64,000 nt of DNA from an uncultured Verrucomicrobiae bacterium (lineage in GTDB: Bacteria > Verrucomicrobiota > Verrucomicrobiia > Limisphaerales > Palsa-1400), in the NCBI GenBank assembly GCA_963702845.1, contig OY969763.1, forward strand, positions 2,784,001 to 2,848,000, in the 5' to 3' direction. This document shows, in pieces, positions 13,636-61,882 of this stretch; positions within the stretch are counted from its first letter, which is position 1, and every line of letters begins with the position of its first letter. The position numbers and the translations under genes were made by a program. Below the pieces are notes generated by a model. That model had not been told where the DNA came from and made no database searches. It saw nothing but the letters and a program-made list of their open reading frames with translations.

Positions 13636-13658
13636 ACTGGTTTTTTGGGATGTCCCCA

Positions 13659-13684
13659 TCAGGCTGAATACCGATTCAGCCTGA
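13659..13684. other. Perfect 11-bp intergenic hairpin between the two giant genes
   Basis: TCAGGCTGAAT-accg-ATTCAGCCTGA, no adjacent U-tract. Confidence 0.6.
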
Positions 13685-16700: not shown

Positions 16701-19230
16701 CCGCGCCAAGCGCGCTCAACATCACGTTCTGGCCGATGTTCACACCGGCAATCGATTGCGACCCGAACGATGCCGTTGGCGCGTCTGGAATCATAATGGT
16801 GCTGACGTAACTACCGTCAGTCTGGAACTGGTCGAGATAAAGCGTGTTTCCAGTGGTGTTGTTCAAACTTTGCGCGCCGTCACCTACTCGCGATACGATC
16901 AGATTGTTCGTCTGCAAGCGGATCAAATTCGTAACGACGTTCAACGTCGCGCTCGCGCTCGGACCTGTTCCAGCCGCGTTGCTGATCGTGACTGAATAAG
17001 TTCCAGCACTGCCAAGTTGGATATTTGCCAAATTCAGCGCGCTCGAGGTTTGACTTGGGATGGCCGTTCCGTTCTGTGACCACGTATATGAGAACGGGCC
17101 GGTGCCGGAAGCAGTTACTACAATAGCAAGATGGTCTCCGACGCGTTGGGTGCGCGTGGCGGGGAAAATAGAACTGATTGTCGCAGGCACAACCGCTGTG
17201 AAAACAGCATTGCTGCTGGTGACAACCTGGCCGCTCGGACCAGAAACAGTCACTGAATAGGTTCCTGAATCAGCGACAGTCGCAGTAGAAATAGTGAGAG
17301 TCGCTGCTGTCGAACCGGAAAGTGTCGAGCCATTTCCAGTGTCGCCGTTTGCTAAGGGAGTCGCTCCTTTGAACCACTGGTATGTCGGGGTCGGCGAGCC
17401 CGCCACCGTAACTGACAAATTGCCAGTCGTCCCCGCCGCAACGCTGGAGGAAACCGGCTGCGTAACAATGTAAGGGTCGTTAACCGTCAATGTTGCTGGG
17501 GAACTTGTGGCGGAATGCGGCTGCGAATCCCCGTGGTTGTTGGTTACGACGCAACTGTAACTGGTCTGGTCTGTATAAGCGACACTGCTCAACGTTAGTG
17601 TGGCGGTTTTTGTCCCAGTCACTGTGCCGCCGCCACCAGTTGGCGCGCCTTCAGCGAGGTTTACGCCATTGGCCTGCCATTGATAGCTAAACGGTGCCGT
17701 TCCACCGGCAATGATACTGAACCCAGCAGTCTGCCCGTAATTCACCGTGACATTCGTAGGCTGGCTCGTAACGACCGGATCTTGCACCACCAGAACCGCG
17801 TCGGAACTGGTCACTGAACCGCCCAAGGTATTGTTAACGACAACCGAGTAAGACGCCGAATCCGCAGTGGTGACATGTAAAAGTGTCAGCGTGGCGCTTT
17901 GCGACCCAACGATATGAGTCCCATTGTCGGCCAGATTGGAGCCGTTGATACGCCATTGATAAGTTATTCCTGTGCCATAAGCAGTAACACCAATGATGGC
18001 ATTTTGGCCTGTAGGAACATTTTGACTGGGAGGTTGCACGGCGATGTAAGGATCATTGACCGTGATCACCGCCACCGAACTGGTAATAGAAAAATTATTG
18101 ATCGGAGTGCTGGCAACGACCGAATAACTGTCGGCATCATGTGCCTGAGTTACGCCGGTAAGAGTCAAAACCGCCGTTTTTGCGCCGGACACATTCCCGC
18201 CGTTGCTCATTGGGGTTGCGCCCTTATACCACTGATAAGAAAGCGCCGTGCCGGAGGATGCCACACCGACTTTGATAACCGCGTTGCTCCCGGCGTTGAC
18301 GACCTGGTTTGTAGGCTGGTTAGTGATAGAGGCACCGCCGGTCACGTAAGCCCAGGTATCGCCAATACGAAATTCTCCGATGACAGTAGTCTTGGGAGCG
18401 GTCGTGAAGGCATTACCGAGCAAAAACCGAAAAATAGTTGGCGTGGCGCCAATCCCGTTTCCGTTAACAAACATTGTCGGTGCCGGTGCGGTTGCGGAAG
18501 CGAACGTTGTCGACGAAGGGTTGACCCAGCACGCGCCAGTCGCAGTGGCAGTGCTGGAATTGGTTATGTACTGCATCACGACAAAAACGACTTCATTGGT
18601 CGAGTGAGTCACAGGACTGCCGCCGGAAGTTTCGAACGAATAAGCGGTAGTGGAACTATTGGCGACGGCGAGTTGGTAGTGTTGGTTGTCGGCGCCTTGT
18701 CTCAACGCAAGCTTTCCAGCGAGTGAGGACGGAGTATTTGCCTGAGAAGTATTGCCGTTGTTGGCGTCATTGAACGCAGTGACCCAGGGAAGGGCACTTG
18801 TTGCCGTAGACGCGGGGAGCGAACTGGCGTCGGCGACTTGAAGGAGATAGGATACAAAAACGTTGGTGAATCCCCCGCTCCCTTTTTGAATCACTAAACC
18901 CGCGCCCGGCGCGTTGACATTTGTCAACACCACGGCTTTGCCGGAAGGCGCTGGAAACCCAGCGGGGAAACCGCCGTAAGTAAGATTGCTGTTGGCAACT
19001 CTCACAAAATTGGCACCGGGACTTGTGGTGGTATTAATCCCGAACCAAATATCGCCGTTAATGTTAGTTTGGCCGCCCACGTTGGGGGAATTGGTTCCGC
19101 CTAGAGGCGAGCCGGCGAGATACAAACTTCCACCGCCAGCGCTAGCATCAGAAAATTGGTCAAACGTTGGGTAACAAACCGCGACTGAAGCGGAGCTTAA
19201 CAGCAGTGATAGGATAAATAATTTCTTCAT
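13738..19230 (-). CDS. Giant secreted Ig-repeat protein (1830 aa) with two propeller-like domains; paralog of the downstream gene
   Basis: Signal peptide; Ig motifs; two copies of the RVGDG...GNT.YLDQF...RG.RFGP domain; C-terminal FSG..G.SY.V..STN...W...SFTD.....QFY domain. Confidence 0.9.
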   Translation of the reverse strand: MKKLFILSLLLSSASVAVCYPTFDQFSDASAGGGSLYLAGSPLGGTNSPNVGGQTNINGDIWFGINTTTSPGANFVRVANSNLTYGGFPAGFPAPSGKAVVLTNVNAPGAGLVIQKGSGGFTNVFVSYLLQVADASSLPASTATSALPWVTAFNDANNGNTSQANTPSSLAGKLALRQGADNQHYQLAVANSSTTAYSFETSGGSPVTHSTNEVVFVVMQYITNSSTATATGACWVNPSSTTFASATAPAPTMFVNGNGIGATPTIFRFLLGNAFTTAPKTTVIGEFRIGDTWAYVTGGASITNQPTNQVVNAGSNAVIKVGVASSGTALSYQWYKGATPMSNGGNVSGAKTAVLTLTGVTQAHDADSYSVVASTPINNFSITSSVAVITVNDPYIAVQPPSQNVPTGQNAIIGVTAYGTGITYQWRINGSNLADNGTHIVGSQSATLTLLHVTTADSASYSVVVNNTLGGSVTSSDAVLVVQDPVVTSQPTNVTVNYGQTAGFSIIAGGTAPFSYQWQANGVNLAEGAPTGGGGTVTGTKTATLTLSSVAYTDQTSYSCVVTNNHGDSQPHSATSSPATLTVNDPYIVTQPVSSSVAAGTTGNLSVTVAGSPTPTYQWFKGATPLANGDTGNGSTLSGSTAATLTISTATVADSGTYSVTVSGPSGQVVTSSNAVFTAVVPATISSIFPATRTQRVGDHLAIVVTASGTGPFSYTWSQNGTAIPSQTSSALNLANIQLGSAGTYSVTISNAAGTGPSASATLNVVTNLIRLQTNNLIVSRVGDGAQSLNNTTGNTLYLDQFQTDGSYVSTIMIPDAPTASFGSQSIAGVNIGQNVMLSALGAGADAFYENVLTRSANQQYLNFAAYNVSIPAVANPINGTADIRGIGAVNAIGYYQLAYTNFGLYSGGSQFIRSAVSDDGLVDFWTTGAASSGGLKYVQVGVASYATGSGVPGLSGSGPGTRVVDIVGGNVVFTDSTNNIGLNAFNGLPKPTSGTVASTLVLNQGGSPVDFAASPDLQTIYIADDRVYDGTQAGGIQRWDTNSASGGWTYSYTLASGAGTNGASCMTVDFSANTVWGPGVNGAIIYATTSGKNNSLVKIVDNGSGSAASVLTAAGPNQILRGVRFGPVAVPIQITTQPQTQTNFVAQTVSLSVAATGDAPFSYQWKKNGVNLSGATDSVLSITNAQTSDSGSYSVVVSDPLPSGATSQVAVVSVIAAPPVVLTPLQSRVETAGDHMAFTVVALGTPPFTYSWTKNGSPISGTNNVLALSNIQTSDSGTYAVRITTPNGSVTNSATLTVTSGLQNLYPTNIVAVRVGDGSQGLSSFTGNTIYLDQFKPNGTYVNTIMIPDTLPNALIGAGGSDALTENVMTLSQNASYLNLSGFNVSQPYNGPTGVGYGNGNAGTVRGMAAVDAYGAYSLAITNVGLYNASTQFRCAVSSDGISQFWTTGSASTVAGMKYLHNGGATTAIAGGLSGTRVVDITPHGNLAFTDVGDNGMTGLNALTGLPNTTATPTLVINVGPTASPNDFSISPDVATVYIADDENYTTGAGYGGIERWDNVGGTYVLSYTLATGGNSLGGARCIVVDYSASGSWGPSVNGAVIYATTSEASTNRIVRIVDNGPGSTGTVLAAAGPNQLYRGMRFGPGPAGVTIVTPPQNVTAGVGTSATFTVSAAGGPFTYQWQRNGNPLTDGPSPSGTGAIISGSTSAVLTVSHVAVGDSSDNFSVIVSNPNPSGSATSTAGALTVVFSQFGGGGTSPVVVNPDKTVQLNFSGTAGSSYRVWGSTNVALKPITSTWTLLANGAFTGGADSFTDTNAPAFKQQFYTITIP

Positions 19231-24676: not shown

Positions 24677-26017
24677 TTATTTCTTTGAAAGCTTCGCGTT
24701 GTGGTCGGTTGAGATATGAATATCCAGAGGCTTGCCACTGAGATCATAGAACGCAACGGTGCCATCCAGTCGGCCTAAAGCGATTTTGTCGGAGGAAACG
24801 AAATCCAAGGCAGGAGCCCAGTCAGGTTGTTTTTCGAGCAGGACGCGTTCGCGCATGCCGCTGAAGTTCCAAATTTTGACGGTGCGATCGTCGGCCGTGG
24901 AAGCGAGCACCTGCCCGTCGGAGGAAAACGCGAGGTGCAGGATGGCGCCCTCGTGCGCGAACTTGGATTCGAGGATGGGATTGGTCGTCTCCGCCGCGTT
25001 GTCGCTGATCTGCCAGGTGCGAATGCGGCTATCAACGCCGCCGGCCACGAGTTTCTTGCCGTCGGGAGTGAAGGCGACGGTGTACACATCCTTCAAGGGT
25101 TGCGAGAGCGTGTCGCGGCGATTACCGGTCGCGACGTCCCAAAGTTTTACGGTTCGATCACCACTCGCGCTGGCAAGGATTTTGCCGTCTGGTCGAAACG
25201 CCAGGCCATAAACGCAGCCGTTATGGCCTGATAACGTTTTGAGTTCCTTGCCAGTCACGACATCCCACAGCTTGATTTTTTGGTCGTAGCTGCCGCTGGC
25301 CAGAATTTTTCCGTCAGGTGAAAGCGCGATTGAATAGATGGCGTCCTTGTGTCCCTTCAAAGTTCGGACGAGGGAACCATCAGCAACCTTCCAGATTTTT
25401 ATTTCGCCGAAACGCGAGTCCTCACCGGCGGCGGCGTAGATACGATGTCCGTGAGCTGAAGCGACCAATGCATTGACGTTGCCGTGGTGCCCCGAAAGTG
25501 TGCGAATCAACGAACCGTTTTCCACGGAACACAACTGAACTTCGCCGTAGCGTCCTAACGCAAAGAGCGAAGAATTCGGGATATGCACAATCGCATTCAC
25601 TGGATTGCGCGGCGCGACCTTTGGTTTGATTTCAGGAACGTTGAGCTCTTTAACGATTGCTGCCGCTGGTGGTTTTGCGCCCGCATCGATCCATGCTTTG
25701 ATCGCGGCGATTTCTTCAAGGTCGAGCTTTTTGCGTTTCTTCGGCGGCATGACGAGCGTCTTGCCGTCCTTGCTGGTTTTGCCCTCGACCATTTTTACCA
25801 ACAAACTGTCACTGCTTTTACCCGGCACAATGGCGGCGCCGTTCTCGCCGCCCTTCATCAAGCCTTCGTAGTTTTCCAAAACGAGTTTCGCTTCGGGTTC
25901 TTTGGATTCGTGGCAATCGAGGCAGTATTTGGAAAAGATAGCGTCGACGGCGACGTAATCCGGAGCCGCCACCGCAGATAGCGCAAGACTGAACAAAAAT
26001 AAAAACGCTGCGCGCAT
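24677..26017 (-). CDS. Planctomycete cytochrome c domain + WD40 repeat protein
   Basis: CLDCH heme motif, MPP, WIDAGA; multiple GH...SPDGKILAS.S.D.TVKLWD repeats. Confidence 0.92.
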   Translation of the reverse strand: MRAAFLFLFSLALSAVAAPDYVAVDAIFSKYCLDCHESKEPEAKLVLENYEGLMKGGENGAAIVPGKSSDSLLVKMVEGKTSKDGKTLVMPPKKRKKLDLEEIAAIKAWIDAGAKPPAAAIVKELNVPEIKPKVAPRNPVNAIVHIPNSSLFALGRYGEVQLCSVENGSLIRTLSGHHGNVNALVASAHGHRIYAAAGEDSRFGEIKIWKVADGSLVRTLKGHKDAIYSIALSPDGKILASGSYDQKIKLWDVVTGKELKTLSGHNGCVYGLAFRPDGKILASASGDRTVKLWDVATGNRRDTLSQPLKDVYTVAFTPDGKKLVAGGVDSRIRTWQISDNAAETTNPILESKFAHEGAILHLAFSSDGQVLASTADDRTVKIWNFSGMRERVLLEKQPDWAPALDFVSSDKIALGRLDGTVAFYDLSGKPLDIHISTDHNAKLSKK

Positions 26018-26018
26018 A

Positions 26019-28469
26019 TCAATGGTTGAACAAGAATTCCCTGCTGCTCAACAGCGCCCAATATATGTCTTCAACGACCGGCCGAACCTCGTCCGGTTTT
26101 GTCGTTTCGAGAGCGGAGATGAGTTTCTTTTTCTCCGGCTCGGTTGGATACCGACAGAGCGCGCTCAAATACGCGTGGTCCAACATTGTTTGCGGCGACG
26201 TTTTCTTGCTCAACAACTTGCCGATCTCGTTGTTCTTTGCCTCGAGCTTCTTGTTGATCGTGTCGCCGTTACAAACGTGCAAGACCTGCGAAATGCTCGG
26301 GTCAGCGGTGCGTTCGCATTCGCAGGTGATACTGCGATCGGGACGGCCAAAGGTTTTGAGGAAATACGAATCCACTCGAGTATCGGGCAACTGCATCGCG
26401 CGCCAGCCTTTCGGGAACGGCACGGCCTGACCGCCGAAGTCTGCCGTGCTGCCCGTGAAGCTCGATGAATCATAAGTGTCCGTCACTTGCGAGACGGCGT
26501 CCAACAGCACTTCAGCCATCAGCCGACGCGGATAGTAACGCGAATAGAACCGGGTATCGGCAACGTTCTCCGGCAACGCCTCGCTGGAGCGCTGATAGGT
26601 TTCGGACTGCAGAATGGTCCGCATCAAAATTTTAAGGTCAAACTTTTGGTCGCTCAGGAACTTTGCTGTTGCTGACAAAAGTTTTTCGTTACTGGCCGGA
26701 TTGGTGACCCGCAAATCATCGACTGCTTCAATAATGCCCACGCCGAAAAAGTTCGCCCAAACGCGGTTGACGATCGCTCGCGCGAAATACGGATTGTCGC
26801 GAGAGACGAGCCAATCCGCTAAATGCTGGCGGCGATCTTCGGGCGAATCGATCGGAACGGGCGTGCCGTCCAGCGGTGTAGGAACTTGTGGTTTGCCGGT
26901 CAAAGGCTGCACGAGATCCCCATCCGGAACCGTATAAACCACTGCTTCACCATCGCCATTGCCACTCTTGGCGCGAACACGTGCGTAAAGGTTCGCGAAC
27001 TTATAATATTGGTCGTTCGTCCACTTTTCCATCGGATGGTTGTGACACTTCGCGCACGCGACCGACATCCCGAGAAACGCTTGCGACGTGGTTTCGGCCA
27101 AAGATTTAGGGTCGTCATGCAAAACGTAGAAATTGCCGGCGCCGTTTTGGAAAGTGCTGCCGGTCGCGGTCACGATCTTGCGCGCGAACTCGTCCCAATG
27201 CGTGTTGGCGGTCACGTTCTCGCGAATCCAATTATAGTAAGACCACATCGCCGCTGGTTTCAGCTTCTTGGTGCTGACGAGCAACAGGTCCGACCATTTG
27301 TGCGACCAATAATCAACAAACTCCGGACGTTGCAACAAGCGGTCGATCAGTTGATCGCGTTTTTTGGAAGATTTGTCGGCCAAGAAATCGCGCGTTTCTT
27401 TTTCAGTGGGCAGAACGCCAATGGTATCGAGGTAAGCGCGACGAATAAACTCCGTGTCCGTGCATTTCGGTGACGGCGGAATATTCAGGCTACGGAGCTT
27501 TTCATTTACGAGATCATCGATGAAATTGCGCCGCTTGGCCTGGGTAAACACACGCGAAGGAATTTGGTTTGTGAACGGGACTGTGACGGTCGCCGCGGCG
27601 ATGCGGCTCAAATACCAGGCGGTGATCGCGCCTTCCCCATTTCCGATGACCTTCACATGTCCTTCATCATCGACCTGCGTCACGCTTCCGTTTGCAGCGT
27701 TAAATTTCGCCCAATGCGTCACGTCTTCGGTGTGGCCGTCGCTGAACGATGCGACAACCATCAGTTGCTGCGCGTCACCGTTCCTCAGCACGACAGAGCT
27801 CGGGATGATTTCGATTTTCTCAATGCGCGGATCTTCGGGTTTGGGCCCCGGCGTTCCAGAAGCAATCCAATCGGCGATGACGCGATAGTCGATCGAATCA
27901 ACGTCGAAGCGCTTGCCGCCTTTGTGTGGAACGGCGGAGGTCGGTTTCAACAACATCAGGCTGCGGCCGGGATCGCTTGGAATGACGCGGCGGCCTAAAG
28001 CGGAACGAGTCAAAGTCAAAAAATCTCCTTCATTATCATAGCCGCGCAGAGAGAGCTTGAATCCGTTTTGTCCGGCAGCGGCACCGTGGCAGGCGCCCGA
28101 GCTGCATCCGGCTTTGGCAAGGACCGGTTGGACGTGGTTGCGGAAACTCCATTCGAAAGGCTTTTCCATGCCGACGACGGTGATGTCCACCGACGCCTTT
28201 CCAGCTTTTAAAGTAACCGTTGCTTTGCCGTTGCCGACCGGAATCGCCACCCCGTTCTCCACTTTGACAACCTTCGGATTATTGGAGACAAAAACCGCAT
28301 TGGTAATTTCGCCGACGTTTTGTTTGCCTTGCACTTTTTCAGCAATCAACCGTTGATGGGCAGCTTGACCGTGCAACGTGATTTTTCGCGGAAGGATTTC
28401 GATCGTGTCGGACGCACGCGCGACAAGCCCAACGAAGAGCAACGCACAAAATAAGAAATGACGAGACAT
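26019..28469 (-). CDS. DUF1549/DUF1553 protein with Ig-like domains
   Basis: CSSGACHG, FIRRAYLD, CAKCHNHP, NPYFARAIVNRVW, RRLMAEVL, FGRPDR, EFLFNH; start 28469 or 28475. Confidence 0.92.
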   Translation of the reverse strand: MSRHFLFCALLFVGLVARASDTIEILPRKITLHGQAAHQRLIAEKVQGKQNVGEITNAVFVSNNPKVVKVENGVAIPVGNGKATVTLKAGKASVDITVVGMEKPFEWSFRNHVQPVLAKAGCSSGACHGAAAGQNGFKLSLRGYDNEGDFLTLTRSALGRRVIPSDPGRSLMLLKPTSAVPHKGGKRFDVDSIDYRVIADWIASGTPGPKPEDPRIEKIEIIPSSVVLRNGDAQQLMVVASFSDGHTEDVTHWAKFNAANGSVTQVDDEGHVKVIGNGEGAITAWYLSRIAAATVTVPFTNQIPSRVFTQAKRRNFIDDLVNEKLRSLNIPPSPKCTDTEFIRRAYLDTIGVLPTEKETRDFLADKSSKKRDQLIDRLLQRPEFVDYWSHKWSDLLLVSTKKLKPAAMWSYYNWIRENVTANTHWDEFARKIVTATGSTFQNGAGNFYVLHDDPKSLAETTSQAFLGMSVACAKCHNHPMEKWTNDQYYKFANLYARVRAKSGNGDGEAVVYTVPDGDLVQPLTGKPQVPTPLDGTPVPIDSPEDRRQHLADWLVSRDNPYFARAIVNRVWANFFGVGIIEAVDDLRVTNPASNEKLLSATAKFLSDQKFDLKILMRTILQSETYQRSSEALPENVADTRFYSRYYPRRLMAEVLLDAVSQVTDTYDSSSFTGSTADFGGQAVPFPKGWRAMQLPDTRVDSYFLKTFGRPDRSITCECERTADPSISQVLHVCNGDTINKKLEAKNNEIGKLLSKKTSPQTMLDHAYLSALCRYPTEPEKKKLISALETTKPDEVRPVVEDIYWALLSSREFLFNH

Positions 28470-28477
28470 AACCACGG

Positions 28478-29854
28478 CTAGAACAGTTCGTTGATTGGTT
28501 GCGTCCCAAAATCGACGACCGGGAACGGCCGCGACTGCGGTCCAGGCAGCTTAGTTTCCAGATCAACGCCTACAGATTTGAGGATGGTCGCGACGACTTC
28601 AGACGGTTTCACGGGCCGCTCGGTTGGATATGCACCAATGTCGTCGCTCTTGCCGACGACACGACCGCCTTTCACCCCACCACCGGCAAAATTGATTGTC
28701 CAACATTGCGGCCAGTGATCGCGACCGCCGGCCGGGTTTACTTTTGGCGTGCGACCGAATTCGGCGAGGCAGGCGATCATCGTCTTATCCAACATGCCGC
28801 GCTGGAACAAATCTTCGAGCAGCGCCGTGTAGCCCTGGTCATACATCGGCGCGACGATGTCTTTCATTCCAGCAATGGACGTGAAGGGTTTCGAGCCGTG
28901 AATATCCCACGTGATTTCATCGAACACGGTGATGAACGTGTTGATGGTGACGAAACGCACGCCGCGTTCGACAAGACGGCGAGCGAGCAAACAACTTTGG
29001 CCAAATCGCGTCATGCCATAACGATCACGGACTTTTTGCGGTTCTTTCTCGAGGTCAAATGCCTCGCGCGCCTTGCTGCTCGTCATCAGGCGATAGGCCG
29101 ACGCGAAGTTTGTATCCATCAACTGCGCGTTCGGGCTGGCTTCGAAATTCTTCACCGCATCGTCAACCACCTGGCGCAATTCGCGACGGCGTTCGAGGCG
29201 GGCTTCGCCAATTTCGGTCGGCGGCAAAAGATCTGGAACTTTGAAACCTTTCTTCGAAGGGTCAGCATTCAGCACGAATGGGTCAAATGACTTGCCGAGG
29301 AACCCGGCGTCCTGGCCATGCGGCATGTTTCCGCCGGTCGGGCCCATCGGCTCGGGCAGAATAATATTGGCAGGCAACTCGTTACGGCGGCCTTTCAAAA
29401 ACTCCAACGCGCACCCGACATGCGGCGTATTAACTCCGCCCGTAAATAACCGCCCTGTCTGCATCAACTGATGCCCACCATCGTGCACCGCCGGACCGGT
29501 GTGATAACAACTGCGCACCAGCGAAAATTTGTCGGCGTGTTTGGCGTGGAGCGGGAAAATCTCTGAAATCTGAATGTCCGGATTGTTCGTCCTGATCGGC
29601 TTGAATGGCCCGCGAATTTCCGCTGGCGCATCCGGTTTCATATCCCACGTATCGATCTGGCTGGGCGCGCCGAGATTAAAAATCATGATGCACGAACGAT
29701 CGTCATTTCCCTTAGGTGCGGCGCCCATCGCCTGAAGTTCCGCAAACTTCGATAGCGATAATCCAATCGCGCCCAGCGTGCCGACCTGAAGGAAGTCGCG
29801 ACGGGTTATTCCGTCGCAAGTCGTGATCGAACCTCTGCCGGTGAACTTGAGCAT
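28478..29854 (-). CDS. DUF1501 protein (Tat signal)
   Basis: TRRDFLQ, GAPSQIDTWDMKP, ARRLVERGVRFV, EFGRTP, GRDHW. Confidence 0.93.
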   Translation of the reverse strand: MLKFTGRGSITTCDGITRRDFLQVGTLGAIGLSLSKFAELQAMGAAPKGNDDRSCIMIFNLGAPSQIDTWDMKPDAPAEIRGPFKPIRTNNPDIQISEIFPLHAKHADKFSLVRSCYHTGPAVHDGGHQLMQTGRLFTGGVNTPHVGCALEFLKGRRNELPANIILPEPMGPTGGNMPHGQDAGFLGKSFDPFVLNADPSKKGFKVPDLLPPTEIGEARLERRRELRQVVDDAVKNFEASPNAQLMDTNFASAYRLMTSSKAREAFDLEKEPQKVRDRYGMTRFGQSCLLARRLVERGVRFVTINTFITVFDEITWDIHGSKPFTSIAGMKDIVAPMYDQGYTALLEDLFQRGMLDKTMIACLAEFGRTPKVNPAGGRDHWPQCWTINFAGGGVKGGRVVGKSDDIGAYPTERPVKPSEVVATILKSVGVDLETKLPGPQSRPFPVVDFGTQPINELF

Positions 29855-29966
29855 ACGATTATAGACGTAACATCGGACAAAAATATTTGGGCTGCATTTT
29901 AAAAATATCTCTTTCTTGAAATGATTCAATCGCAATCAGTAGTGTCGCGGCCTGTCGGGCGGGACA

Positions 29967-30006
29967 GATTACTTGCGATTACCTCTGATTACTTCTGATT
30001 ACCTCT
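29967..30006 (+). repeat. 4 x 10-bp periodic repeat GATTACnnnn (block 1)
   Basis: GATTAC at 29967, 29977, 29987, 29997. Confidence 0.9.
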
Positions 30007-30139
30007 TTCGTGTTTTTTCGATTTTCCATAAAAGTTAGAGCCTCCTTACGTCGGCTGCTACATTAGTATAACGACGGACGAAACGGCGTGATCGTCCCTA
30101 CCTGGAAGACATATGCTGGACGGTGTTTTCATGGATCGA

Positions 30140-30179
30140 GATTACTTGCGATTACCTGTGATTACTTCTGATTACCTTT
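30140..30179 (+). repeat. 4 x 10-bp periodic repeat GATTACnnnn (block 2, near-identical to block 1)
   Basis: GATTAC at 30140, 30150, 30160, 30170. Confidence 0.9.
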
Positions 30180-30195
30180 TTTCATATTTTTCACG

Positions 30196-31590
30196 TCAAA
30201 AACCACGGAGCCTGACTTGGTGGACCTTCTGTGGTTGGGTTGCGATCATGTAACGGAGTGCGTCGGCGGCATCGTCGCCGCCGACACCGGTTTCGTCGGG
30301 ATCGGTTTTCAGGACGTCTTCCGGTCGGTTAGGGTCGCTTTGCAACGTAGGGAGGCAATCGATCAGACGCGAGCAGCGGCGATGGAAAAAGAGTGTTGGT
30401 TTGAGCTTTCCTTCTTCATCGCCGAGACGTTTGAGGATGGCAGCCCAGCCGTTCAGGCGCTCCATATTGGCCTGGCGCATAGAAATTCCCAGTTGCCGGT
30501 ATTGCGATGCAATCGTTGTGCCGTCGCTTTGTTTGCCGAAGATATCAGCGCCTGCGACGAACCTTGCGAGGTTAATCGAATAGCGTTCGTTGAGTCCCAA
30601 GTGATGCCGTTTGAGCATGGCTTTGATCGCCTCTGCGTGACGTTCCGGAATCCAATTACGCGCGGCGTGCTCGTCGACGATGAAGATGTTGTTGTCACTG
30701 TCGCGGCAACCGAGCAGGACGACGGTATAGTGGGTGAAGCCGTAATCAAGCGCAGCGAACCATTCGACGGCGCGGCGGTCGTCGAACTCGTCGATGACGT
30801 GCAATTCCCGGCGGAAGTTGGTGAAGAATTGGCCGGCCTTGATGTCCCAGTCGCCATCCAGCCACGCGCGCCGTTGCCAACCGGTGAGAGAGCCAAGAGC
30901 ATCTTTATATCCGGCGTTGACGAAAGAATTGTCGTTAACGGTCGCTGGGATGAAGCGTGTCTGCTTCTCCTCGCCGCGTTGAAATGGAACGACGTATTTA
31001 GACCGATACCATGCGTGGCCGACACCTCCGGGATTGGTGGTGGAATAGATGCGAGGTCGCCAGCCGGTTTTTGAGGTGCGGTTGCAGGTGCAGATGTCCA
31101 GGAATTTGCGGCTGGTCAGGGTGGTGGCTTCTTCAATGCCTATGACGTCGTATTCGAGCCCTAGATATTTATCGATGTCGTTTTCGTTTTGAAAATGACC
31201 GATGATGATACGTGAGCCGTTTTCGAACGTGAGAACGCCTCGAGTGGTGCTGAACTCGTGGTTGAGCCTGAGGAGAAGACGGCGGCGCAGGTCTTCGAAG
31301 TTTTCGAGGTTGGATTTGCCGACTTTGCGCAGGAGCAAACATTTGAGGCCGGGGAAGCGTTGGCAGTCATCGGTGCCCATCTGAGCGATGAGCCAATGAG
31401 ATTTGCCACCGCCACGCGCACCGCCGAAGCCGATGGAGGTTGGGCCGGTTGCAAGATCGCAAAGGCGCGCGGCGGCACTGGCGGCGAGTTGTTTGGGCTG
31501 AAGTATCACGCCGGCGTTGATGAAGTGCCTTAGCTGATCCGGTGGGCAACCTGCTTCAGTGGCTAAGTTGATGTAGTGTTCGGGAGACAT
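30196..31590 (-). CDS. terL: Phage terminase large subunit
   Basis: Walker A FGGARGGGKS, Walker B IGIEEA, coupling motif STTNPGGVGH, nuclease ALDYG and DDAADALRY. Confidence 0.93.
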   Translation of the reverse strand: MSPEHYINLATEAGCPPDQLRHFINAGVILQPKQLAASAAARLCDLATGPTSIGFGGARGGGKSHWLIAQMGTDDCQRFPGLKCLLLRKVGKSNLENFEDLRRRLLLRLNHEFSTTRGVLTFENGSRIIIGHFQNENDIDKYLGLEYDVIGIEEATTLTSRKFLDICTCNRTSKTGWRPRIYSTTNPGGVGHAWYRSKYVVPFQRGEEKQTRFIPATVNDNSFVNAGYKDALGSLTGWQRRAWLDGDWDIKAGQFFTNFRRELHVIDEFDDRRAVEWFAALDYGFTHYTVVLLGCRDSDNNIFIVDEHAARNWIPERHAEAIKAMLKRHHLGLNERYSINLARFVAGADIFGKQSDGTTIASQYRQLGISMRQANMERLNGWAAILKRLGDEEGKLKPTLFFHRRCSRLIDCLPTLQSDPNRPEDVLKTDPDETGVGGDDAADALRYMIATQPQKVHQVRLRGF

Positions 31591-31635
31591 TTGGAAAGAA
31601 AAGTGCCAAGTGATGAGTGATGAGTTTTACTGCAT

Positions 31636-32418
31636 CTAATTTTGGAAATGGGTGCCGTTTGAATTAGCCGTCGCGAGTGGTGGTGGAGGTGGTGGGCAGA
31701 TTTTATTGAGGGCGGCGAGGAGTTCGTTCTGTATGGGTGATAGTGCAGGGCGATCGTCGTCAGTCGTTGGGCTTTGCAGGGCCGAACGGGACATTTTGGA
31801 ACCGATACTCAGGGCGCGCGACAGTTCGGAGATGCGGAATTTTTCGAGGTCGCGATCACCGAAATTTTCGAGGCAACATCGCACCACGTTGAGGAGTTTT
31901 TGTGCGTCTTCCCATTCCTGCTCGCGGTATTCAGCGGTGCGTTTGGCCCAATCAGCAGCAGCTTTCCGAGCCGCTTCTGTTTCAGCCTGCGCTTCCTGTT
32001 CGAGTAAGCCGGAATTGAAACGGTTTATGCGCTCGCTCCAGTCGTATTTGCTGGACCAGTTTTTGACCGTGGGCAATTGCTCGCCGTGTTTGTCGGCGAC
32101 GGCTTGCAGAGTACGGCGGTGGCCGAGGCGAAAGTAGGTCGTGAAAGCGTTGAAGGCACGTGGGGTTTCGCCGGGGGAACGGGAAAAGGTTGGTTGACAA
32201 CCGACATGTGTGTCGGGGCTCGCTCCGCTCGGCGTTGAGGGTTGAGGGGCATCTTGTCCATTTCGGATTTCCACCTTCGCCGAGGCTACGGCGGACGGGT
32301 CGGATTGCGGATTGCGAATTGAATCGGGACCAGTTTCTAACATCGATGGCGTATTTGCTGTGTCGGGTGTCGCACAAACTGTTGTTGAGACCGTGTTGGA
32401 ATCATTGGAGGTATTCAT
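31636..32418 (-). CDS. Putative terminase small subunit (HTH) with low-complexity N-terminus
   Basis: GETPRAFNAF..Y..LG..RTL..VA......TVKNWSSKYDWSER pattern typical of phage HTH proteins, directly upstream of terL. Confidence 0.65.
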   Translation of the reverse strand: MNTSNDSNTVSTTVCATPDTANTPSMLETGPDSIRNPQSDPSAVASAKVEIRNGQDAPQPSTPSGASPDTHVGCQPTFSRSPGETPRAFNAFTTYFRLGHRRTLQAVADKHGEQLPTVKNWSSKYDWSERINRFNSGLLEQEAQAETEAARKAAADWAKRTAEYREQEWEDAQKLLNVVRCCLENFGDRDLEKFRISELSRALSIGSKMSRSALQSPTTDDDRPALSPIQNELLAALNKICPPPPPPLATANSNGTHFQN

Positions 32419-32441
32419 ATTTTTGAAAAACCCTACCAAAG

Positions 32442-32468
32442 TCACTTGGACAAAGACGGTCCAAGTGA
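32442..32468. promoter_or_regulatory. Palindromic operator-like site TCACTTGGAC-N7-GTCCAAGTGA upstream of TerS-like gene
   Basis: Perfect 10-bp arms; same arms at 55566-55592. Confidence 0.75.
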
Positions 32469-32778
32469 AAATTTTTTGAACAAAAAAGAAGAATTGGCGC
32501 AAACGTCTTAAACGCAGGCGGTAATGCACTGAATACGAGTTAAAACATCAACCAAGCGATCGAATTCTTTGACCGTAACCGCCGCGTCCGCTGGTGACGA
32601 CTCACTAGCGTGGCCGGTATGGCGCAGCTTTACGTTTCCAAGGTGAAATACTTCTTGGCGGCAGGTTACCGGGAAGGAAACCGCAAGGGTGTGTTGCAGA
32701 AATTCCCGGAAAATCCCACAAAGAATGTGTAAATGTGTAGGACTGACACTGGACATAGGGATAATATGATTGTATGCG

Positions 32779-32961
32779 ATGAAGACCTCCCACTCCAACG
32801 AGACCACAGCACACACTGGGACGGTGTTTGCTATCTCGGAGATTGTCCTCGGTTTGGCCATGCTGCGTGGCATTGCCCCTTTGGTGGATTTCGCATTTCC
32901 CCAGGCGACATCCAAGAGTCCAACGGAGGTTGATGAGACTAAAGCGCAAGATCAACAATAG
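32779..32961 (+). CDS. Small hypothetical protein, convergent with terL remnant 1
   Basis: 60 aa, one hydrophobic stretch, upstream TATGAT -10-like element. Confidence 0.35.
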   Translation: MKTSHSNETTAHTGTVFAISEIVLGLAMLRGIAPLVDFAFPQATSKSPTEVDETKAQDQQ

Positions 32962-32993
32962 GGTATCCCAAATGGGCGAGATCAACATTTGGA

Positions 32994-33076
32994 CTAACCA
33001 GCAGCTTCCGCTGCAAAATAACCCGTGACTTCGTCGCCACCAGATATCGCAACGCATCCGCCGCATCATCGCCTCC
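32994..33076 (-). pseudogene. terL 3'-end remnant 1
   Basis: Translates GGDDAADALRYLVATKSRVILQRKL vs resident GGDDAADALRYMIATQPQKVHQVRL. Confidence 0.85.
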
Positions 33077-33229
33077 AAACCTCCCTTGTCGCGCCATAGC
33101 CTTCGGCGACGGCGGACCGCCAGAGATTTCCAACCTCTGCACTCCGCTCTCTTTTCCAGAAGAGCCCCCTATAAAACCCTTGTTCGCAAATAAAGAAATG
33201 CGAACAATTGTCGCATATCAATTTTGGGC

Positions 33230-33430
33230 ATGACTCACAACCTTCATTCTCTCTTTGCGGTCTACATGGCAATACCGCCTGACGGCAAGCTCTCAGACAA
33301 AACGCCCGGCTGGGCAGTTGTCATGGGCGGCATCGGGTGCGTCGTTACACTCGTGCTCATGTGTGCATTGATCCAAAAGACGCGAAGGGATAAACGGCGC
33401 CAGAAGCACTCCTGGACGCGTCGACAATGA
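33230..33430 (+). CDS. Small single-TM protein, convergent with terL remnant 2
   Basis: 66 aa, TM WAVVMGGIGCVVTLVLMCALI followed by basic tail. Confidence 0.55.
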   Translation: MTHNLHSLFAVYMAIPPDGKLSDKTPGWAVVMGGIGCVVTLVLMCALIQKTRRDKRRQKHSWTRRQ

Positions 33431-33454
33431 CAGAGCCTTGTCATCGTACCTAGC

Positions 33455-33517
33455 TCACACCCCCCACAACTTCCCCTGAATAATCACGCGCGGCTTCGTC
33501 GTGACCAGATGCCGCAG
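33455..33517 (-). pseudogene. terL 3'-end remnant 2
   Basis: Translates LRHLVTTKPRVIIQGKLWGV*, same 20-aa register and stop as LRYMIATQPQKVHQVRLRGF*. Confidence 0.75.
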
Positions 33518-33621
33518 CTTGCAAAAAATCGGCAGCTATAGAGAAACTCAATTTAAAAATTGAGGACAGCAACGTTTTGCCTTATTGACACGCGCCCTAA
33601 TGGGTGACACCACATCGAAGA

Positions 33622-36507
33622 TTAGGCGAACGCGCGGTCAAGAATCTCTTTTTCTTCCTTCTTATGGACGCGCGGAGAACCGGTCGCGGGGCTCGGCGAT
33701 GCCGGTCGCGAGATGCTGCGGAACGGAACATTTCGAAGCTTTTCACCGACAAGGATGCGCATGTAACGGGAAGCTCCCATGTTTTCAGGCTCTTCCTGGA
33801 CCCAGAAAAATTCAGTCGCTTGAGCATATTGAGCCAGGCCGTCGTTCAAACGTTCGATATCGAGCGGGTAAAGCTGCTCGATTCGCACGACCGCGATGTC
33901 ATCGCGTTTGAGTTTTTGGCGCTGCGTTTCGAGTTCGTAATAAATTCGGCCAGCGCAGAGAAGAATGCGCCGGGCACCGGGATTTTGCGGCGCGATGATC
34001 CGTTGGAATTTGCCGGTCGCGCAGTCGTCGAGAGATGAAACGGCCCGTGTATCGCGCAATAAACCTTTTGGCGTAAAAACAATCAACGGCTTGCGCCATT
34101 GCCGTATCAGTTGCCGGCGCAAACAATGGAAGCACTGCGCGGGAGTCGTCGGATAGACGACCTGCATATTGTCTTGAGCGCACAATGCTAAAAAGCGTTC
34201 GAGCCGCGCGCTGCTGTGTTCCGGCCCCTGCCCTTCAAATCCGTGCGGGAGCAAAAGCACCACGCCGCTGAGGCGGCTCCATTTGTCCTCGGCGCTGGCG
34301 ATGAATTGATCGATGAAGACTTGCGCTGCATTGACGAAATCGCCGAACTGCGCTTCCCAACATACCAGGCCGTCAGGGCAATCGAGGCTGTAACCATAAT
34401 CGAAGCCGAGGACCCCGTTCTCTGACAACGGGCTGTTGATAATCTCAACAGGCGCTTGCTGCGGGCCGAGGTGGCGCAATGGAATATACGGATGGCCATC
34501 TTTGTAGTCGTAGAAAATCGCGTGTCGTTGACTGAACGTGCCGCGCCCGCTGTCCTGACCACTGAGGCGCACTCGAAAACCTTCCGTGCTGAGACTGGCG
34601 AACGCGAGAGCTTCGGCGGTTGACCAATCCAACGGTTGTTCACCGCGTGCCATCTTGCGACGTGCTTCCAGTAATTTAGTGATCTTGGGGTGCGGATTAA
34701 AGTCCTTTGGCAACTCGGTTTGCTTTAGCAAAAGCTGTGAAAGCGTTGCGCGATCGACGCCGGTTGAAACGTTCGACCGTGCAAGTGCATTGGACGAAAC
34801 GGGCGGAAGTTGCTCCGCATTGCGTTCGGACCCGCCGAGGTATTGGCCGCGGCTCCAGACACCAGGTATCTTTTCGACAGGCGTTTGAAACCGTTCGTCA
34901 CGGGCCTCGCTCAGCATTTGTTCCAGTGCTTCGCGACGACGGTGCGCGATGGCATCAGCGTCCTCGCGCGTCACACCTTTGAGCGCGAGCAAATGTTCCA
35001 GATACCCTTCGCGGACCGACTTGCGATCTTCGATTGCCCGGTATAGGACCGGCTGAGTGAACGATGGTTCGTCGCTCTCGTTGTGACCGAGCCGACGATA
35101 ACCATACATATCGATAACCACGTCGCGCTTGAACTCGTTTCGAAAATCCATCGCGAGCCGCACGACCTGCGCAACGGCTTCGGGGTCTTCACCGTTCACG
35201 TGGAAAATCGGGATTTGCAACATGCGCGCGACATCGGTGGAGTAAGTCGTCGAACGGCCCTCGTCGGGAGACGTGGTGAATCCGATTTGATTATTCACGA
35301 CCACATGCAACGTGCCGTGCACTGTGTAACCGGGCAGTTGGCTCATGTTGAGCGTCTCTTGAATGATCCCCTGCCCTGCGAAACTGGCGTCGCCGTGAAT
35401 CAACATGCCCATGCAATGTTCGCCTTGCGTATCGTTCGTGCGATCCTGCTTGGCACGAACACGCCCGAGCACCACTGGATTGACGAACTCGAGATGACTC
35501 GGATTGAAGCAAAGCGAGAGATGAATCCTGGCCCCGGATGAGGTCGTCCATTCGTTGCTGTAGCCCAGATGGTATTTCACGTCACCGTGGCCTACCGGCA
35601 ATTTTGAATCATCGGCGAACTCGCGGAAAATTTGTCGCGGACTTTTGCCAATAATATTTGCGAGAACATTGAGCCGACCGCGATGAGCCATGCCGAAGAC
35701 GATCTCCTTGATGCCTTGAGTCGCGGCTTTCTCGATGGCGAGGTCCAGCAGCGGTATCAAGCTTTCGCAGCCTTCGAGTGAAAAACTTTTTGCGCCAACA
35801 AATTTTTTACGAATGAATTCCTCGAACGTCACTGCATCGGTTAGTCGCGTGAAAATGCGCAGTTGTTCATCGCGGGTGAGTTGAATGCGATTGCGGGATG
35901 TTTCCATCCTGCGCTGCAACCAACGACGCACATCGAGGTCGTCGATGTGCATGAACTGGACGCCAATCGAACGGCAATAGGTATCGCGCATTAACGCGAT
36001 GATCTCGCGCACCGCCATCGGCTTGTCGATTTGCAGCACAACCGACGTCACCGACGTGTTCAGCTCTTCTTCGGTGAACTTGTAAAACTCAGGCTGGAGT
36101 TCCGCCGGAACCGCCGGTTGGATTCCCAATGGATTCACTCGCGCGATGCGATGACCGCGCACCCGGTAATTGCGCACGAGCTGATTGACGCGATCCTGCA
36201 AGCCGGTCGCAGCGCTCGTCGCTTCGCCTCGCCGCTCTGCTGTCGCCGAAAATAATCCGCGTGGCTTGAACGATGGCCCGAGTTGCGACGCGACACGAGC
36301 GTCGCCGTTTACGAGGTTGTCGAAATATTCCTGCCACTCAGGACTGAGCGACCCGGGATCCCGCGCGTAATCGGCATACAACTCCTCGATGAATGGCAGA
36401 TTACTGAACGTTGCGACATCGAGTGACTCCGCGTGCCTGCCCGGAGCAAGTTGAACAGGAGCATCCTTCACCACATCCAAATCTACCCCGCCACAGTGCC
36501 ATGTCAA
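33622..36507 (-). CDS. sucA: 2-oxoglutarate dehydrogenase E1 component
   Basis: FSLEG, GMAHRGRLN, GDVKYHLG, NPSHLE, HGDA, WEAQFGDF, GPEHSSARLERFL; exact start uncertain. Confidence 0.96.
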   Translation of the reverse strand: MTWHCGGVDLDVVKDAPVQLAPGRHAESLDVATFSNLPFIEELYADYARDPGSLSPEWQEYFDNLVNGDARVASQLGPSFKPRGLFSATAERRGEATSAATGLQDRVNQLVRNYRVRGHRIARVNPLGIQPAVPAELQPEFYKFTEEELNTSVTSVVLQIDKPMAVREIIALMRDTYCRSIGVQFMHIDDLDVRRWLQRRMETSRNRIQLTRDEQLRIFTRLTDAVTFEEFIRKKFVGAKSFSLEGCESLIPLLDLAIEKAATQGIKEIVFGMAHRGRLNVLANIIGKSPRQIFREFADDSKLPVGHGDVKYHLGYSNEWTTSSGARIHLSLCFNPSHLEFVNPVVLGRVRAKQDRTNDTQGEHCMGMLIHGDASFAGQGIIQETLNMSQLPGYTVHGTLHVVVNNQIGFTTSPDEGRSTTYSTDVARMLQIPIFHVNGEDPEAVAQVVRLAMDFRNEFKRDVVIDMYGYRRLGHNESDEPSFTQPVLYRAIEDRKSVREGYLEHLLALKGVTREDADAIAHRRREALEQMLSEARDERFQTPVEKIPGVWSRGQYLGGSERNAEQLPPVSSNALARSNVSTGVDRATLSQLLLKQTELPKDFNPHPKITKLLEARRKMARGEQPLDWSTAEALAFASLSTEGFRVRLSGQDSGRGTFSQRHAIFYDYKDGHPYIPLRHLGPQQAPVEIINSPLSENGVLGFDYGYSLDCPDGLVCWEAQFGDFVNAAQVFIDQFIASAEDKWSRLSGVVLLLPHGFEGQGPEHSSARLERFLALCAQDNMQVVYPTTPAQCFHCLRRQLIRQWRKPLIVFTPKGLLRDTRAVSSLDDCATGKFQRIIAPQNPGARRILLCAGRIYYELETQRQKLKRDDIAVVRIEQLYPLDIERLNDGLAQYAQATEFFWVQEEPENMGASRYMRILVGEKLRNVPFRSISRPASPSPATGSPRVHKKEEKEILDRAFA

Positions 36508-55565: not shown

Positions 55566-55592
55566 TCACTTGGACAGCCTTTGTCCAAGTGA
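55566..55592. promoter_or_regulatory. Second copy of palindrome TCACTTGGAC-N7-GTCCAAGTGA
   Basis: Identical arms and spacer length to 32442-32468; 18 nt before ATG 55611. Confidence 0.75.
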
Positions 55593-61878: not shown

Positions 61879-61882
61879 TCCG

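Follow-up and report, generated by a model that had tools for sequence, protein, structure and literature searches.

An intact terminase pair kept alone among host genes of an uncultured Verrucomicrobiae bacterium, and the operator it shares with other lone pairs

The 64-kb stretch of an uncultured Verrucomicrobiae genome analysed here (the window) carries two adjacent terminase genes between a DUF1501 cluster (DUF1501 match 7e-102) and sucA, which Pfam recognises by E1_dh and related domains. The gene for the large subunit, TerL (30196–31590, minus strand, 464 aa), was identified by its reading frame and by profile matches. It is intact – the frame runs uninterrupted through an ATPase and an RNase-H-like nuclease domain. 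The gene for the small subunit, TerS (31636–32418, minus strand, 260 aa), lies directly upstream, with 45 nt between the TerS stop and TerL. A first-pass annotation of the sequence had proposed an intact pair at this place, and Pfam and PHROG matches together with preserved motifs bear it out: this is a real, intact TerS–TerL module.

TerL matches Terminase_3 (30.5 bits, cut-off 23.2) and Terminase_6N (30.3 bits, cut-off 22) in Pfam, and phrog_2 (5.7e-29) and phrog_979 (1.3e-21) in PHROGs; NCBIfam returned no match, and a sequence search of the PDB gave chance-level matches only. Measured against 54 canonical homologues, the protein keeps 196 of 211 near-invariant columns. The family-invariant positions include a Walker A motif (GGARGGGKS, residues 56–64), E153/E154, TTNPGG (184–189), D282, D306-E307-H308, D349 and D439/D440/D443, among which the catalytic Walker A/B and acidic nuclease residues presumably lie. 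Across residues 400–447, nearly all of the canonical invariant positions are retained. The predicted fold is weak (pLDDT 60.3, pTM 0.43), and for this low-confidence model the PDB matches listed at E≤0.001 are large terminases exclusively, the best being phage D6E TerL (E 1e-9, TMq 0.48–0.50, ~445–458 columns). The codon-position GC of TerL resembles that of the host.

The upstream gene was assigned as TerS through phrog_6299 (9.9e-21). It has no match in Pfam, and its score against the NCBIfam model TerS_not_xtmA (18.6 bits) is well under the cut-off of 120. Its true start is the ATG at 32418, and the beginning of the protein, MNTSNDS, is conserved in two other species. Alignment reveals a low-complexity, indel-rich N-terminus of ~75 aa followed by a conserved core. 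We refer to this TerS as A-type; its identity to the TerS of the canonical elements described below is just 27–31%.

The pair was also said to lack a nearby portal, capsid or integrase, and searches of the 64 kb with Pfam and PHROGs found none of these and no tail gene either. No tRNA was found in the window, Rfam gave no match across 29800–33700, and a promoter scan returned one site, fewer than the shuffle mean. Right after the TerL stop codon begins one copy of a 54-nt direct repeat (30139–30192), made of four tandem 10-bp repeats (GATTACYTNN) and a T-rich tail and conserved in a related genome, G002; the other copy (29966–30019), 87% identical, lies upstream of the DUF1501 gene. Repeats of this type occur at 11 genomic sites, and the canonical elements hold none. 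Because they form an 11-site mosaic family without a link to the canonical elements, the GATTAC repeats were rejected as the operator that the pair might share with other packaging genes.

Fragments of canonical elements are scattered through the window. One encodes the 25 C-terminal residues of a TerL of canonical type (33002–33076, minus strand), 88% identical to the copies in elements C and D and missing from the orthologous spacer of a related metagenome locus, L237; a second covers the extreme C-terminus of a canonical-type TerL (33458–33517, minus strand). A third, recognised by homology to canonical elements, is a remnant of a replication module (60896–64000, minus strand) with a 41-aa N-terminal primase fragment (90% identity), three copies of an unknown, E16-like gene and a 94-aa C-terminal piece of a primase-neighbouring gene (98% identity) that runs off the window; its ORFs match no Pfam or PHROG family. 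The primase/helicase module that the first-pass annotation had placed 30 kb away thus shrinks to this remnant. Two ORFs that had been candidates for primase/helicase functions (55940–58351 and 58348–59544) have no Pfam, PHROG or PDB match. Solitary TerL 3′ fragments occur at seven places in the genome, two of them 0.5–1 kb upstream of the window TerS, and the presence of such fragments and of an element remnant nearby indicates that the region collects and erodes elements.

Upstream of TerS lies a 25-nt palindrome, CACTTGGAC-N7-GTCCAAGTG (32443–32467), with which the end of the locus in the first-pass annotation (32468) coincides and which is also the top site of a terminator scan. It forms part of a module of ~45 nt – an A/T run, the palindrome and then GTGACYTTGYTA – that ends ~23 nt before the TerS start codon. 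The suspicion that the pair shares an operator with other genes proved correct: the palindrome has 27 genomic copies and precedes four orphan pairs and one prophage packaging operon, namely the window pair (A), a second pair of its type (Gx), pairs of an unrelated TerL family (family 2) at 2.184 and 2.760 Mb, and the packaging operon at 2.30 Mb. It is also found at the outer edge of canonical elements C, D and E, and it is kept before TerS in G002 (L035, 4137–4161) and in L237 (2332–2356). A second copy in the window (55567–55591, plus strand) precedes a 78-aa ORF starting MKIEISEVFV. The operator is common to the window pair and other lone terminase pairs of the genome.

The nearest relatives of the window TerL, the canonical TerLs (65–70% identity), sit in integrative elements of ~22–25 kb that carry a primase, TerS, TerL, portal, scaffold, major head protein, head–tail adaptor and integrase, with no recognisable tail genes. 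Five such elements (B–F) are present in this genome, E and F annotated by PHROGs and B, C and D assigned by homology. Integrase, primase, TerS/TerL, portal, capsid and adaptor are all there, and by these genes the five score as cf-PICIs; no HNH, protease or AlpA-type regulator gene was among those found. Behind the adaptor lie three small ORFs without a PHROG match to tail, holin or other structural families; two are without any match and one has a weak bacteriocin-immunity match (7.6e-4).

These elements bear on whether any head genes depend on the window pair. All five phrog_145 portals and all five phrog_247 capsids lie in elements with their own TerS/TerL, and each of the two HK97-type loci comes with a TerL from a different family (phrog_5909). 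Since every portal and capsid set has its own terminase, a need for the orphan pair is not evident. The genome-wide search for head genes served by the pair, proposed in the first-pass annotation, therefore came back empty. Its picture of a dispersed, GTA-like packaging system holds insofar as the pair is retained and the operator is shared, but no terminase-less head module exists in the genome to complete it.

Further lone pairs occur in this genome and elsewhere. Gx, the second orphan pair of the window type, is located among nuoH-J-K-L, and at least two further orphan pairs, those of family 2, adjoin purH/hemL and thiH. In a 45-row TerL tree obtained by a quick IQ-TREE search, all 23 canonical TerLs fall in one clade (SH-aLRT 96) with every orphan pair outside it, a clustering matched by none of 500 label shuffles; the placement of one orphan-type locus, L070, differed between two such quick trees. 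All 14 readable orphan-type loci have host genes as neighbours, nuo, aroQ-accBC and an encapsulin operon among them. The host genes that Pfam recognises beside A-type loci include nuoC/D/J/L, aroQ-accB-accC, a sigma-70 gene and encapsulin with a cysteine desulfurase, and a host-gene context is likewise seen in L059 (nuoA to nuoL), L070 and G174. Two more positional classes, upstream of nuo and beside encapsulin, each occur in at least two genomes. Of ~66 A-type metagenome loci, 10 have long flanks, and no canonical replication or head gene was found at any of these, whereas all seven long-flank canonical loci have such genes; A-type TerS was found in none of the best 17 IMG/VR contigs. The terminase lineages of the window pair lie outside the capsid-element clade, and wherever their surroundings could be read they stand as lone pairs amid host genes. 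At the metagenome loci, many of the neighbouring ORFs (for example, small upstream ORFs in L267 and L291) lack a Pfam match and could conceal unknown mobile genes.

The orphan lineage is not uniformly well preserved. At the 211 invariant TerL columns, Gx deviates at 37 and L152 at 32, and the TerL of L294 is truncated at its N-terminus. TerS stands without TerL in seven of the 18 A-type metagenome loci that have at least 1.5 kb downstream, and two TerS-like domains without TerL are found in longer ORFs of this genome.

The gene order TerS–TerL–DUF1501(–PSCyt2/PSD1–WD40) is syntenic in this genome (G000), in G002 and in L237. Genes flanking the pair differ among the three at a dS of ~1.0 (0.98–1.10), as does the DUF1501 gene adjoining TerL, which indicates three separate species. 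Among these species-level lineages the dN/dS of TerL is 0.11, 0.067 and 0.082, compared with 0.068 and 0.082 for TerL within complete elements; that of TerS is 0.24–0.27 overall and 0.15 for the core. The pair has a lower dS than the adjacent host genes (TerL 0.40–0.59 and TerS 0.50–0.95, against 0.98–1.10), and no sharp-edged block of higher identity around it appeared in a sliding-window plot. A sister genus has the orthologous DUF1501 cluster without the pair, which is thus genus-restricted at this site. Sampling of 301 genomes of the order turned up A-type TerS (at least 41% identity) in only two, G000 and G174.

The expectation of a conserved position, low dN/dS and vertical inheritance is accordingly borne out in part: vertical inheritance under purifying selection is seen in three species of the genus and not beyond it. 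The outcome named in advance as pointing to an ordinary prophage remnant – a sporadic locus under relaxed selection – was not borne out as regards selection (omega 0.07–0.27), though the distribution across the order is sporadic. Signs of a decaying remnant are lacking, with ORFs intact in three species and both motifs and synteny kept. These comparisons show that the two genes persist on their own in the chromosome and under purifying selection, and we consider the pair likely to be a selected stand-alone module.

Several other explanations have to be weighed against this background. The genome is full of element debris, including the seven solitary TerL fragments and the replication remnant at 60.9–64 kb, and the pair might simply be more of it: the two last, now functionless survivors of a decayed capsid-forming element or prophage. 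Confinement of the pair at its site to one genus and the rarity of A-type TerS in the order would fit such an origin. Yet both genes have stayed intact in three species whose flanking genes stand at a dS of ~1.0, with a TerL omega of 0.07–0.11, all catalytic motifs kept and a conserved operator before TerS in each; moreover, TerL is not nested among the canonical TerLs, where fresh remnants would fall, and the two other positional classes each recur. We find a functionless remnant quite improbable. The lower dS of TerL and TerS than of adjacent host genes raises a different prospect, namely that the locus is selfish, packages itself into resident capsids and spreads by homologous recombination through its housekeeping flanks. 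Constraint on synonymous sites could equally lower dS, however, and the DUF1501 gene beside TerL retains its full dS of ~1.0, with no bounded identity block in the plot. A selfish locus would make sense of pairs that have no integrase or replication genes beside them, that are flanked by highly conserved core genes (sucA, nuo, accBC, purH, hemL and thiH) and that are sporadic across the order and still fall into positional classes; lateral transduction by phages and PICIs is known (PMC12829572). With no pac site found and no transfer event seen, we hold this explanation to be unlikely.

The remaining explanations assign the pair another job. A host-fixed terminase might compete with satellites and phages, or cut their DNA, and so limit their spread. 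The pair and canonical elements do occur together in four of the five genomes examined (G000, G002, G174 and the L059 genome have canonical portals, the L070 genome has none), the shared operator, which also borders elements C, D and E on their outer side, links the two, and the specificity of the A-type TerS is probably unlike that of the elements. Satellites are also known to manipulate the packaging motor of a helper phage (10.1101/2024.04.22.590561). Interference late in the lytic cycle would be of little benefit to a dying cell, though, and no known defence genes adjoin the pair, nor did a literature search find an account of terminase-derived defence; a defensive role seems very unlikely to us. 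TerL retains in full the C-terminal stretch that its capsid-associated homologues share without change, and the operator ties the pair to packaging operons; both argue against exaptation to a job unrelated to capsids, such as a DNA-processing or repair nuclease/translocase guided by an HTH protein. The housekeeping operons that surround the pairs in all contexts, and the TerS-like domains that occur without TerL (two in this genome, and at seven of 18 metagenome loci), would be in keeping with such a change of function, which we nevertheless regard as highly improbable.

Being intact, selected in three species and one of several lone pairs that share an operator, the window pair looks like more than prophage debris. 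On balance, and by a modest degree, we favour the reading that it initiates packaging in trans, on the capsids of resident elements, as a stand-alone module that is co-regulated and under selection. Weighing against this are the decay seen in Gx, L152, L294 and the TerS-only loci, the rarity of A-type TerS in the order and the absence of the pair from the DUF1501 site of the sister genus. Trans-acting packaging as the actual job of the pair is a plausible assignment that we make tentatively, falling just short of calling it probable. The operator would activate the pair in concert with further packaging genes carried by resident elements. TerL, with a C-terminal region nearly identical to that of the elements' TerLs, would then dock on the procapsids and portals of co-resident capsid-forming elements. 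The divergent A-type TerS would steer cutting and packaging to a DNA target of its own, unlike that of the elements and possibly in the adjoining chromosome, which would then be packaged in the manner of lateral transduction.

A wider form of this packaging-initiator reading is conceivable, if rather doubtful: at least four TerS–TerL pairs, from two unrelated TerL families and under one operator, would seize procapsids for in situ packaging of the chromosome. The trigger would be induction of resident capsid-forming elements or prophages. Such a system might be a host-domesticated, multi-origin relative of GTAs. Alternatively, it might be a hyperparasite smaller than any known so far, a ‘satellite of satellites’ that consists of terminase genes alone and would re-enter genomes via homologous recombination at its housekeeping flanks.

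Terminases are seen as components of a complete virus, satellite or GTA. Like the terminase module of cf-PICIs (PMC10085698), the window pair is a phage-derived TerS/TerL pair, and its canonical relatives show cf-PICI architecture; the other cf-PICI components are absent within the 64 kb around it. The pair also differs from the complete cf-PICI-like elements in its type of TerS and in a TerL that falls outside their clade. Most detected satellites, as far as that account goes, are in Proteobacteria and Firmicutes, and the named cf-PICI families come from these two phyla (PMC10085698); relatives of the window TerL come from Verrucomicrobiota records. The same source describes how the TerS of classical PICIs and SaPIs redirects a helper TerL to satellite DNA (PMC10085698). 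The window pair would resemble them in that a divergent small terminase respecifies the packaging machine of another element. Classical PICIs bring TerS without TerL and are mobile islands that possess both integrase and replicon, whereas the window pair includes TerL and has neither.

GTAs of the RcGTA type (PMC6854486, PMC7947584, PMC9632790) are likewise chromosome-fixed, phage-derived packaging genes kept by selection, and both they and the window pair may fall under a host-wide regulon. A GTA has a complete head(–tail) set serving its own terminase, whereas here TerS and TerL alone are fixed and no head set was found to depend on them. Lateral transduction (PMC8575938, PMC8575950, PMC12829572) is in situ packaging that starts at an integrated pac site; it too relies on a terminase kept in the chromosome with its recognition site, and the window pair could similarly launch one-directional packaging of host genes next to it. 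There the terminase belongs to an element that is complete and inducible, whether prophage or PICI; here the terminases are lone pairs, several per chromosome.

A literature search found no mention of an orphan, stand-alone, domesticated or exapted terminase. The sequencing runs listed for the organism include no RNA run, and its shares of the DNA runs are small (0.05–0.09). To our knowledge, there is almost no experimental phage biology in Verrucomicrobiota. The locus offers a concrete, testable candidate regulon in its 27 operator sites. The picture that emerges would be of a terminase-pair lineage living alone among housekeeping genes, under selection, several pairs to a genome and under one operator. 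If true, this would be a new use of packaging machinery, whether by the host or by a minimal parasite, and might open a new route for the transfer of chromosomal genes in Verrucomicrobiota.

We found that the window TerL (30196-31590, minus strand) is an uninterrupted ORF of 464 aa with an ATG start. It matches Pfam Terminase_3 and Terminase_6N, both over their curated cut-offs, as well as large-terminase PHROG families, the best being phrog_2 (5.7e-29). The ORF 5' of TerL (31636-32418, minus strand) belongs to the small-terminase family phrog_6299 (9.9e-21). Its actual start codon, the ATG at 32418, gives a 260-aa TerS (MNTSNDS...) and is common to two other species; the reading frame further upstream is not conserved. 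Aligning 54 TerL homologues from complete elements defined 211 near-invariant columns, and the window TerL keeps 196 of them. It retains Walker A, Walker B, the coupling motif and the acidic nuclease positions in full, and most of the 15 deviations are conservative (e.g., R/K, Y/F, L/I). A weak AlphaFold model of TerL (pLDDT 60.3, from a shallow 21-row alignment) was compared with the PDB; among the matches listed with E≤0.001, all were large terminases, the best being phage D6E TerL (E 1e-9, TMq about 0.5). The pair is flanked by a DUF1501/PSCyt2-PSD1/WD40 cluster on one side and by sucA and cinA on the other. Pfam and PHROG searches identified no portal, capsid, tail or integrase gene anywhere else in the 64 kb – which, together with the intact TerS and TerL, confirms the first-pass annotation's description of an orphan terminase pair without head or integrase genes nearby. 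No tRNA was found in the window. Elsewhere in the window, two giant proteins (2203 aa, 7048-13659; 1830 aa, 13738-19230) consist of numerous immunoglobulin-like domains, with a gene for a pilin-like N-methyl protein beside them.

The genome (6.03 Mb, single contig) encodes seven full-length TerL paralogues, at 55-69% identity to the window copy, plus short C-terminal fragments, and a TerS homologue lies directly 5' of every full-length copy. Five copies (134606-136015, 1715664-1717049 and 4828809-4830257 on the plus strand; 2247661-2249040 and 4295523-4296908 on the minus strand) reside in related ~22-25 kb integrative elements, here called B-F (covered by loci L009-L016 and L020-L025). These share a gene order: (RusA, exonuclease), primase, TerS, TerL, a variable block of 4-15 kb, portal (phrog_145), scaffold, major head protein (phrog_247), structural protein, head-tail adaptor, a few small ORFs and a tyrosine integrase. 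We recognized no tail genes in B-F, and the elements of this Verrucomicrobiota-like genome show the gene architecture that defines capsid-forming PICIs (cf-PICIs) in the portion of PMC10085698 consulted. Many contigs titled Verrucomicrobiota MAGs, as well as IMG/VR contigs, share this layout. The variable block splits the packaging and head modules, an unusual arrangement. In this genome and in loci L039-L111 and L153-L167, TerL and portal are always separated by 4-15 kb of small ORFs, mostly on the opposite strand, and these ORFs had no PHROG match. TerS and TerL are the only genes that B-F have in common with the window pair.

The window TerS is 27-31% identical to the TerS of B-F and 49-52% identical to that of Gx, a second orphan pair in the genome, whose TerL is directly followed by nuoH-nuoJ-nuoK-nuoL. 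In quick IQ-TREE runs, all 23 complete-element TerLs formed one clade (SH-aLRT 96; 0 of 500 label shuffles were as clustered), and all orphan pairs fell outside it. The orphan types formed a single clade (support 96) in the first tree, but one of them (L070) was placed differently in the second, so their single-clade status is tree-dependent. Orphan-type probes matched a TerS in 41 of 301 genomes of the order, with at least 41% identity in this genome and one other (G174) only. Among the 80 metagenome matches listed, 66 were of the window-pair (A) or Gx type, 13 were of the complete-element (canonical) type and one was weak. Homologues of canonical replication or head genes were present at 7/7 canonical metagenome loci with long flanks and at 0/10 such A-type loci. 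Among the 17 closest IMG/VR contigs, nine carried a canonical TerS and none an A-type TerS. At the loci seen, the lineages of the window pair occur only as lone pairs.

Pfam annotation of flanks and tblastn placed these lone pairs in several contexts. The DUF1501 setting of the window recurs in a same-genus genome (G002) and metagenome locus L237, and Gx, L059 and L278 lie directly 5' of a nuo operon. L278, from a 395-kb contig, has a TerL that groups as sister to the L059 TerL (support 99). Other neighbors are aroQ-accB-accC (L260), HtrA and sigma-70 (L267), a PALP enzyme and response regulator (L269), an autotransporter-like giant gene (L291), pyruvate-phosphate dikinase and UbiB (G174), and a histidine kinase and glycosyltransferases (L070); many flanking ORFs had no Pfam match. 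Two pairs adjoin an SrpI-like, family-2A encapsulin shell gene (L283:12900-13856 and L294:12521-13477), followed in L283 by a cysteine desulfurase gene. Encapsulin shells are HK97-fold compartments. The adjacency may be mere synteny between related organisms.

Several orphan loci (window 29966-30019 and 30139-30192; Gx; L059; L152) carry arrays of 4-5 tandem 10-bp repeat units 3' of the TerL stop. The unit differs by locus (GGTAATCAGA, GGTTCCTTTT, GGTGCGGTTT), and the arrays belong to a wider family of intergenic, mosaic short-tandem-repeat elements.

The position of the pair is conserved across three species. The 67% complete G002 assembly carries the orthologous pair on a 5.2-kb contig, in the order DUF1501, the two repeat copies also present in the window, TerL (90.7% aa identity), TerS and a response-regulator gene; L237 reads TerS-TerL (95% aa)-DUF1501-PSCyt2/PSD1-WD40. 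A second same-genus assembly (G001, 73% complete) contains neither the pair nor the DUF1501 orthologue and is therefore uninformative on presence of the pair. Nei-Gojobori estimates across three species pairs gave dN/dS of 0.11, 0.067 and 0.082 for TerL (dS 0.40-0.59) and 0.24-0.27 for TerS (dS 0.50-0.95), alongside 0.015-0.024 for DUF1501 (dS about 1.0), 0.053 for PSCyt2 (dS 1.10) and 0.059 for WD40 (dS 1.07). TerL pairs within complete elements gave a similar 0.068 and 0.082, which indicates that the orphan TerL is constrained like TerLs that are certainly in use. Between species, the pair (30196-32418) has a dS of 0.40-0.95, roughly half the 0.98-1.10 of the adjacent host genes (24677-29854), though a sliding-window plot revealed no sharply bounded block around it. 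The expectation of conserved position and low dN/dS thus holds for three species, with TerL at 0.067-0.11, but not for a sister genus (G003), which retains the WD40-PSCyt2/PSD1-DUF1501 cluster (87% aa) and has unrelated genes at the site of the pair. The window pair is an intact, selected and positionally conserved stand-alone terminase module, and a plain remnant is an unlikely reading of it. That reading could apply to particular members of the lineage that have diverged: the Gx and L152 TerLs deviate at 37 and 32 of the 211 near-invariant columns, the L294 TerL is truncated at its N-terminus, and 7 of the 18 A-type loci whose downstream sequence spans 1.5 kb or more have a TerS without a TerL.

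A putative operator, the palindrome CACTTGGAC-N7-GTCCAAGTG (32443-32467), ends about 23 nt 5' of the TerS start codon within a conserved ~45-nt module. The first-pass annotation's shared operator is borne out: the genome holds 27 copies, 25 with perfect arms, against about 1e-4 perfect copies expected by chance (a simple arithmetic estimate). Copies lie about 20-40 nt 5' of start codons, mostly of packaging or mobile-element genes. These include the window TerS, a small ORF heading the Gx pair, a longer ORF that contains an A-type TerS domain, a gene of 358-391 aa on the outer margin of elements C, D and E, and a TerS-like gene of a prophage at 2.30 Mb with four of its paralogues; another copy (window 55567-55591) precedes a 78-aa ORF. 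The palindrome is kept 5' of the orthologous TerS in G002 and L237 and was not found 5' of A-type pairs in more distant genomes.

A dispersed packaging system served by the pair, as first proposed, would include head genes elsewhere in the genome. Whole-genome HMM searches for portals and capsids placed all five phrog_145 portals and all five phrog_247 capsids inside B-F. The one HK97-type capsid and two HK97-type portals are at loci at 5.24 and 2.30 Mb, both with a phrog_5909-family TerL (one intact, one split). Each head module therefore has its own terminase, these searches found no head set without one, and the proposal is only partly borne out in this genome. The primase/helicase module 30 kb away that had been invoked in its support is a remnant (window 60.9-64 kb) comprising a 41-residue piece of a primase N-terminus, a 94-residue piece of the neighboring gene and three tandem copies of one gene (61015-63757), which in elements E and F sits just upstream of primase/TerS. 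Long ORFs occupy both strands of 61015-63757, the better-conserved frame being antisense to the packaging genes.

Seven solitary 3' fragments of canonical TerL (window 33002-33076 and 33458-33517; genome 397789, 398728, 1543177, 3447099 and 3667425) comprise the last 25-67 codons, all finishing exactly at the stop codon; apart from these, the census yielded few remnants, namely a 29-aa portal fragment at 808325 and the replication-module remnant at the window end. Homology shared among all TerL copies likewise extends no further than the stop codon, the point at which the elements' variable block starts – possibly a recombination or packaging site.

Lone pairs are not confined to one terminase family. 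Using tblastn with the phrog_5909-type TerL, which is unrelated to the window TerL, we identified TerS2-TerL2 pairs at ~2.184, 2.596, 2.760 and 3.499 Mb (~2183028-2185297, ~2594972-2597282, ~2758761-2761138 and ~3497737-3499898; loci L320-L323), with portal homologues at 2.30 and 5.25 Mb only. Downstream of the 2.184 Mb pair are purH (2e-128 to solved PurH) and hemL (1.6e-162); thiH (1.6e-97) and a ResA-like oxidoreductase gene come after the 2.760 Mb pair, and the 2.596 Mb pair precedes a gene whose product is weakly homologous to the 842-aa protein of the prophage. The palindrome lies upstream of both the 2.184 and 2.760 Mb pairs, and the operator is common to the window pair and other lone pairs of the genome. 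Intact counterparts in G002 have dN/dS of 0.22-0.33, and one of them has both the operator and the initial 56 nt past TerL2 in common.

We propose that the pair would be co-induced with resident elements and would act in trans on their procapsids, its divergent TerS directing the packaging machine to another DNA target. Trans action is suggested by a TerL C-terminal region almost identical to that of element TerLs and by canonical portals in four of the five genomes having orphan pairs. The literature searched yielded no description of an orphan, domesticated, stand-alone or exapted terminase, and nothing pertinent on terminases with defence and domestication; the nearest phenomena, in the portions of the sources consulted, are lateral transduction by prophages and PICIs and the terminases of gene transfer agents (GTAs). 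The beneficiary may be the host, through GTA-like or lateral-transduction-like transfer, or the pair itself as a minimal hitchhiker, or the pair may serve a defence function.
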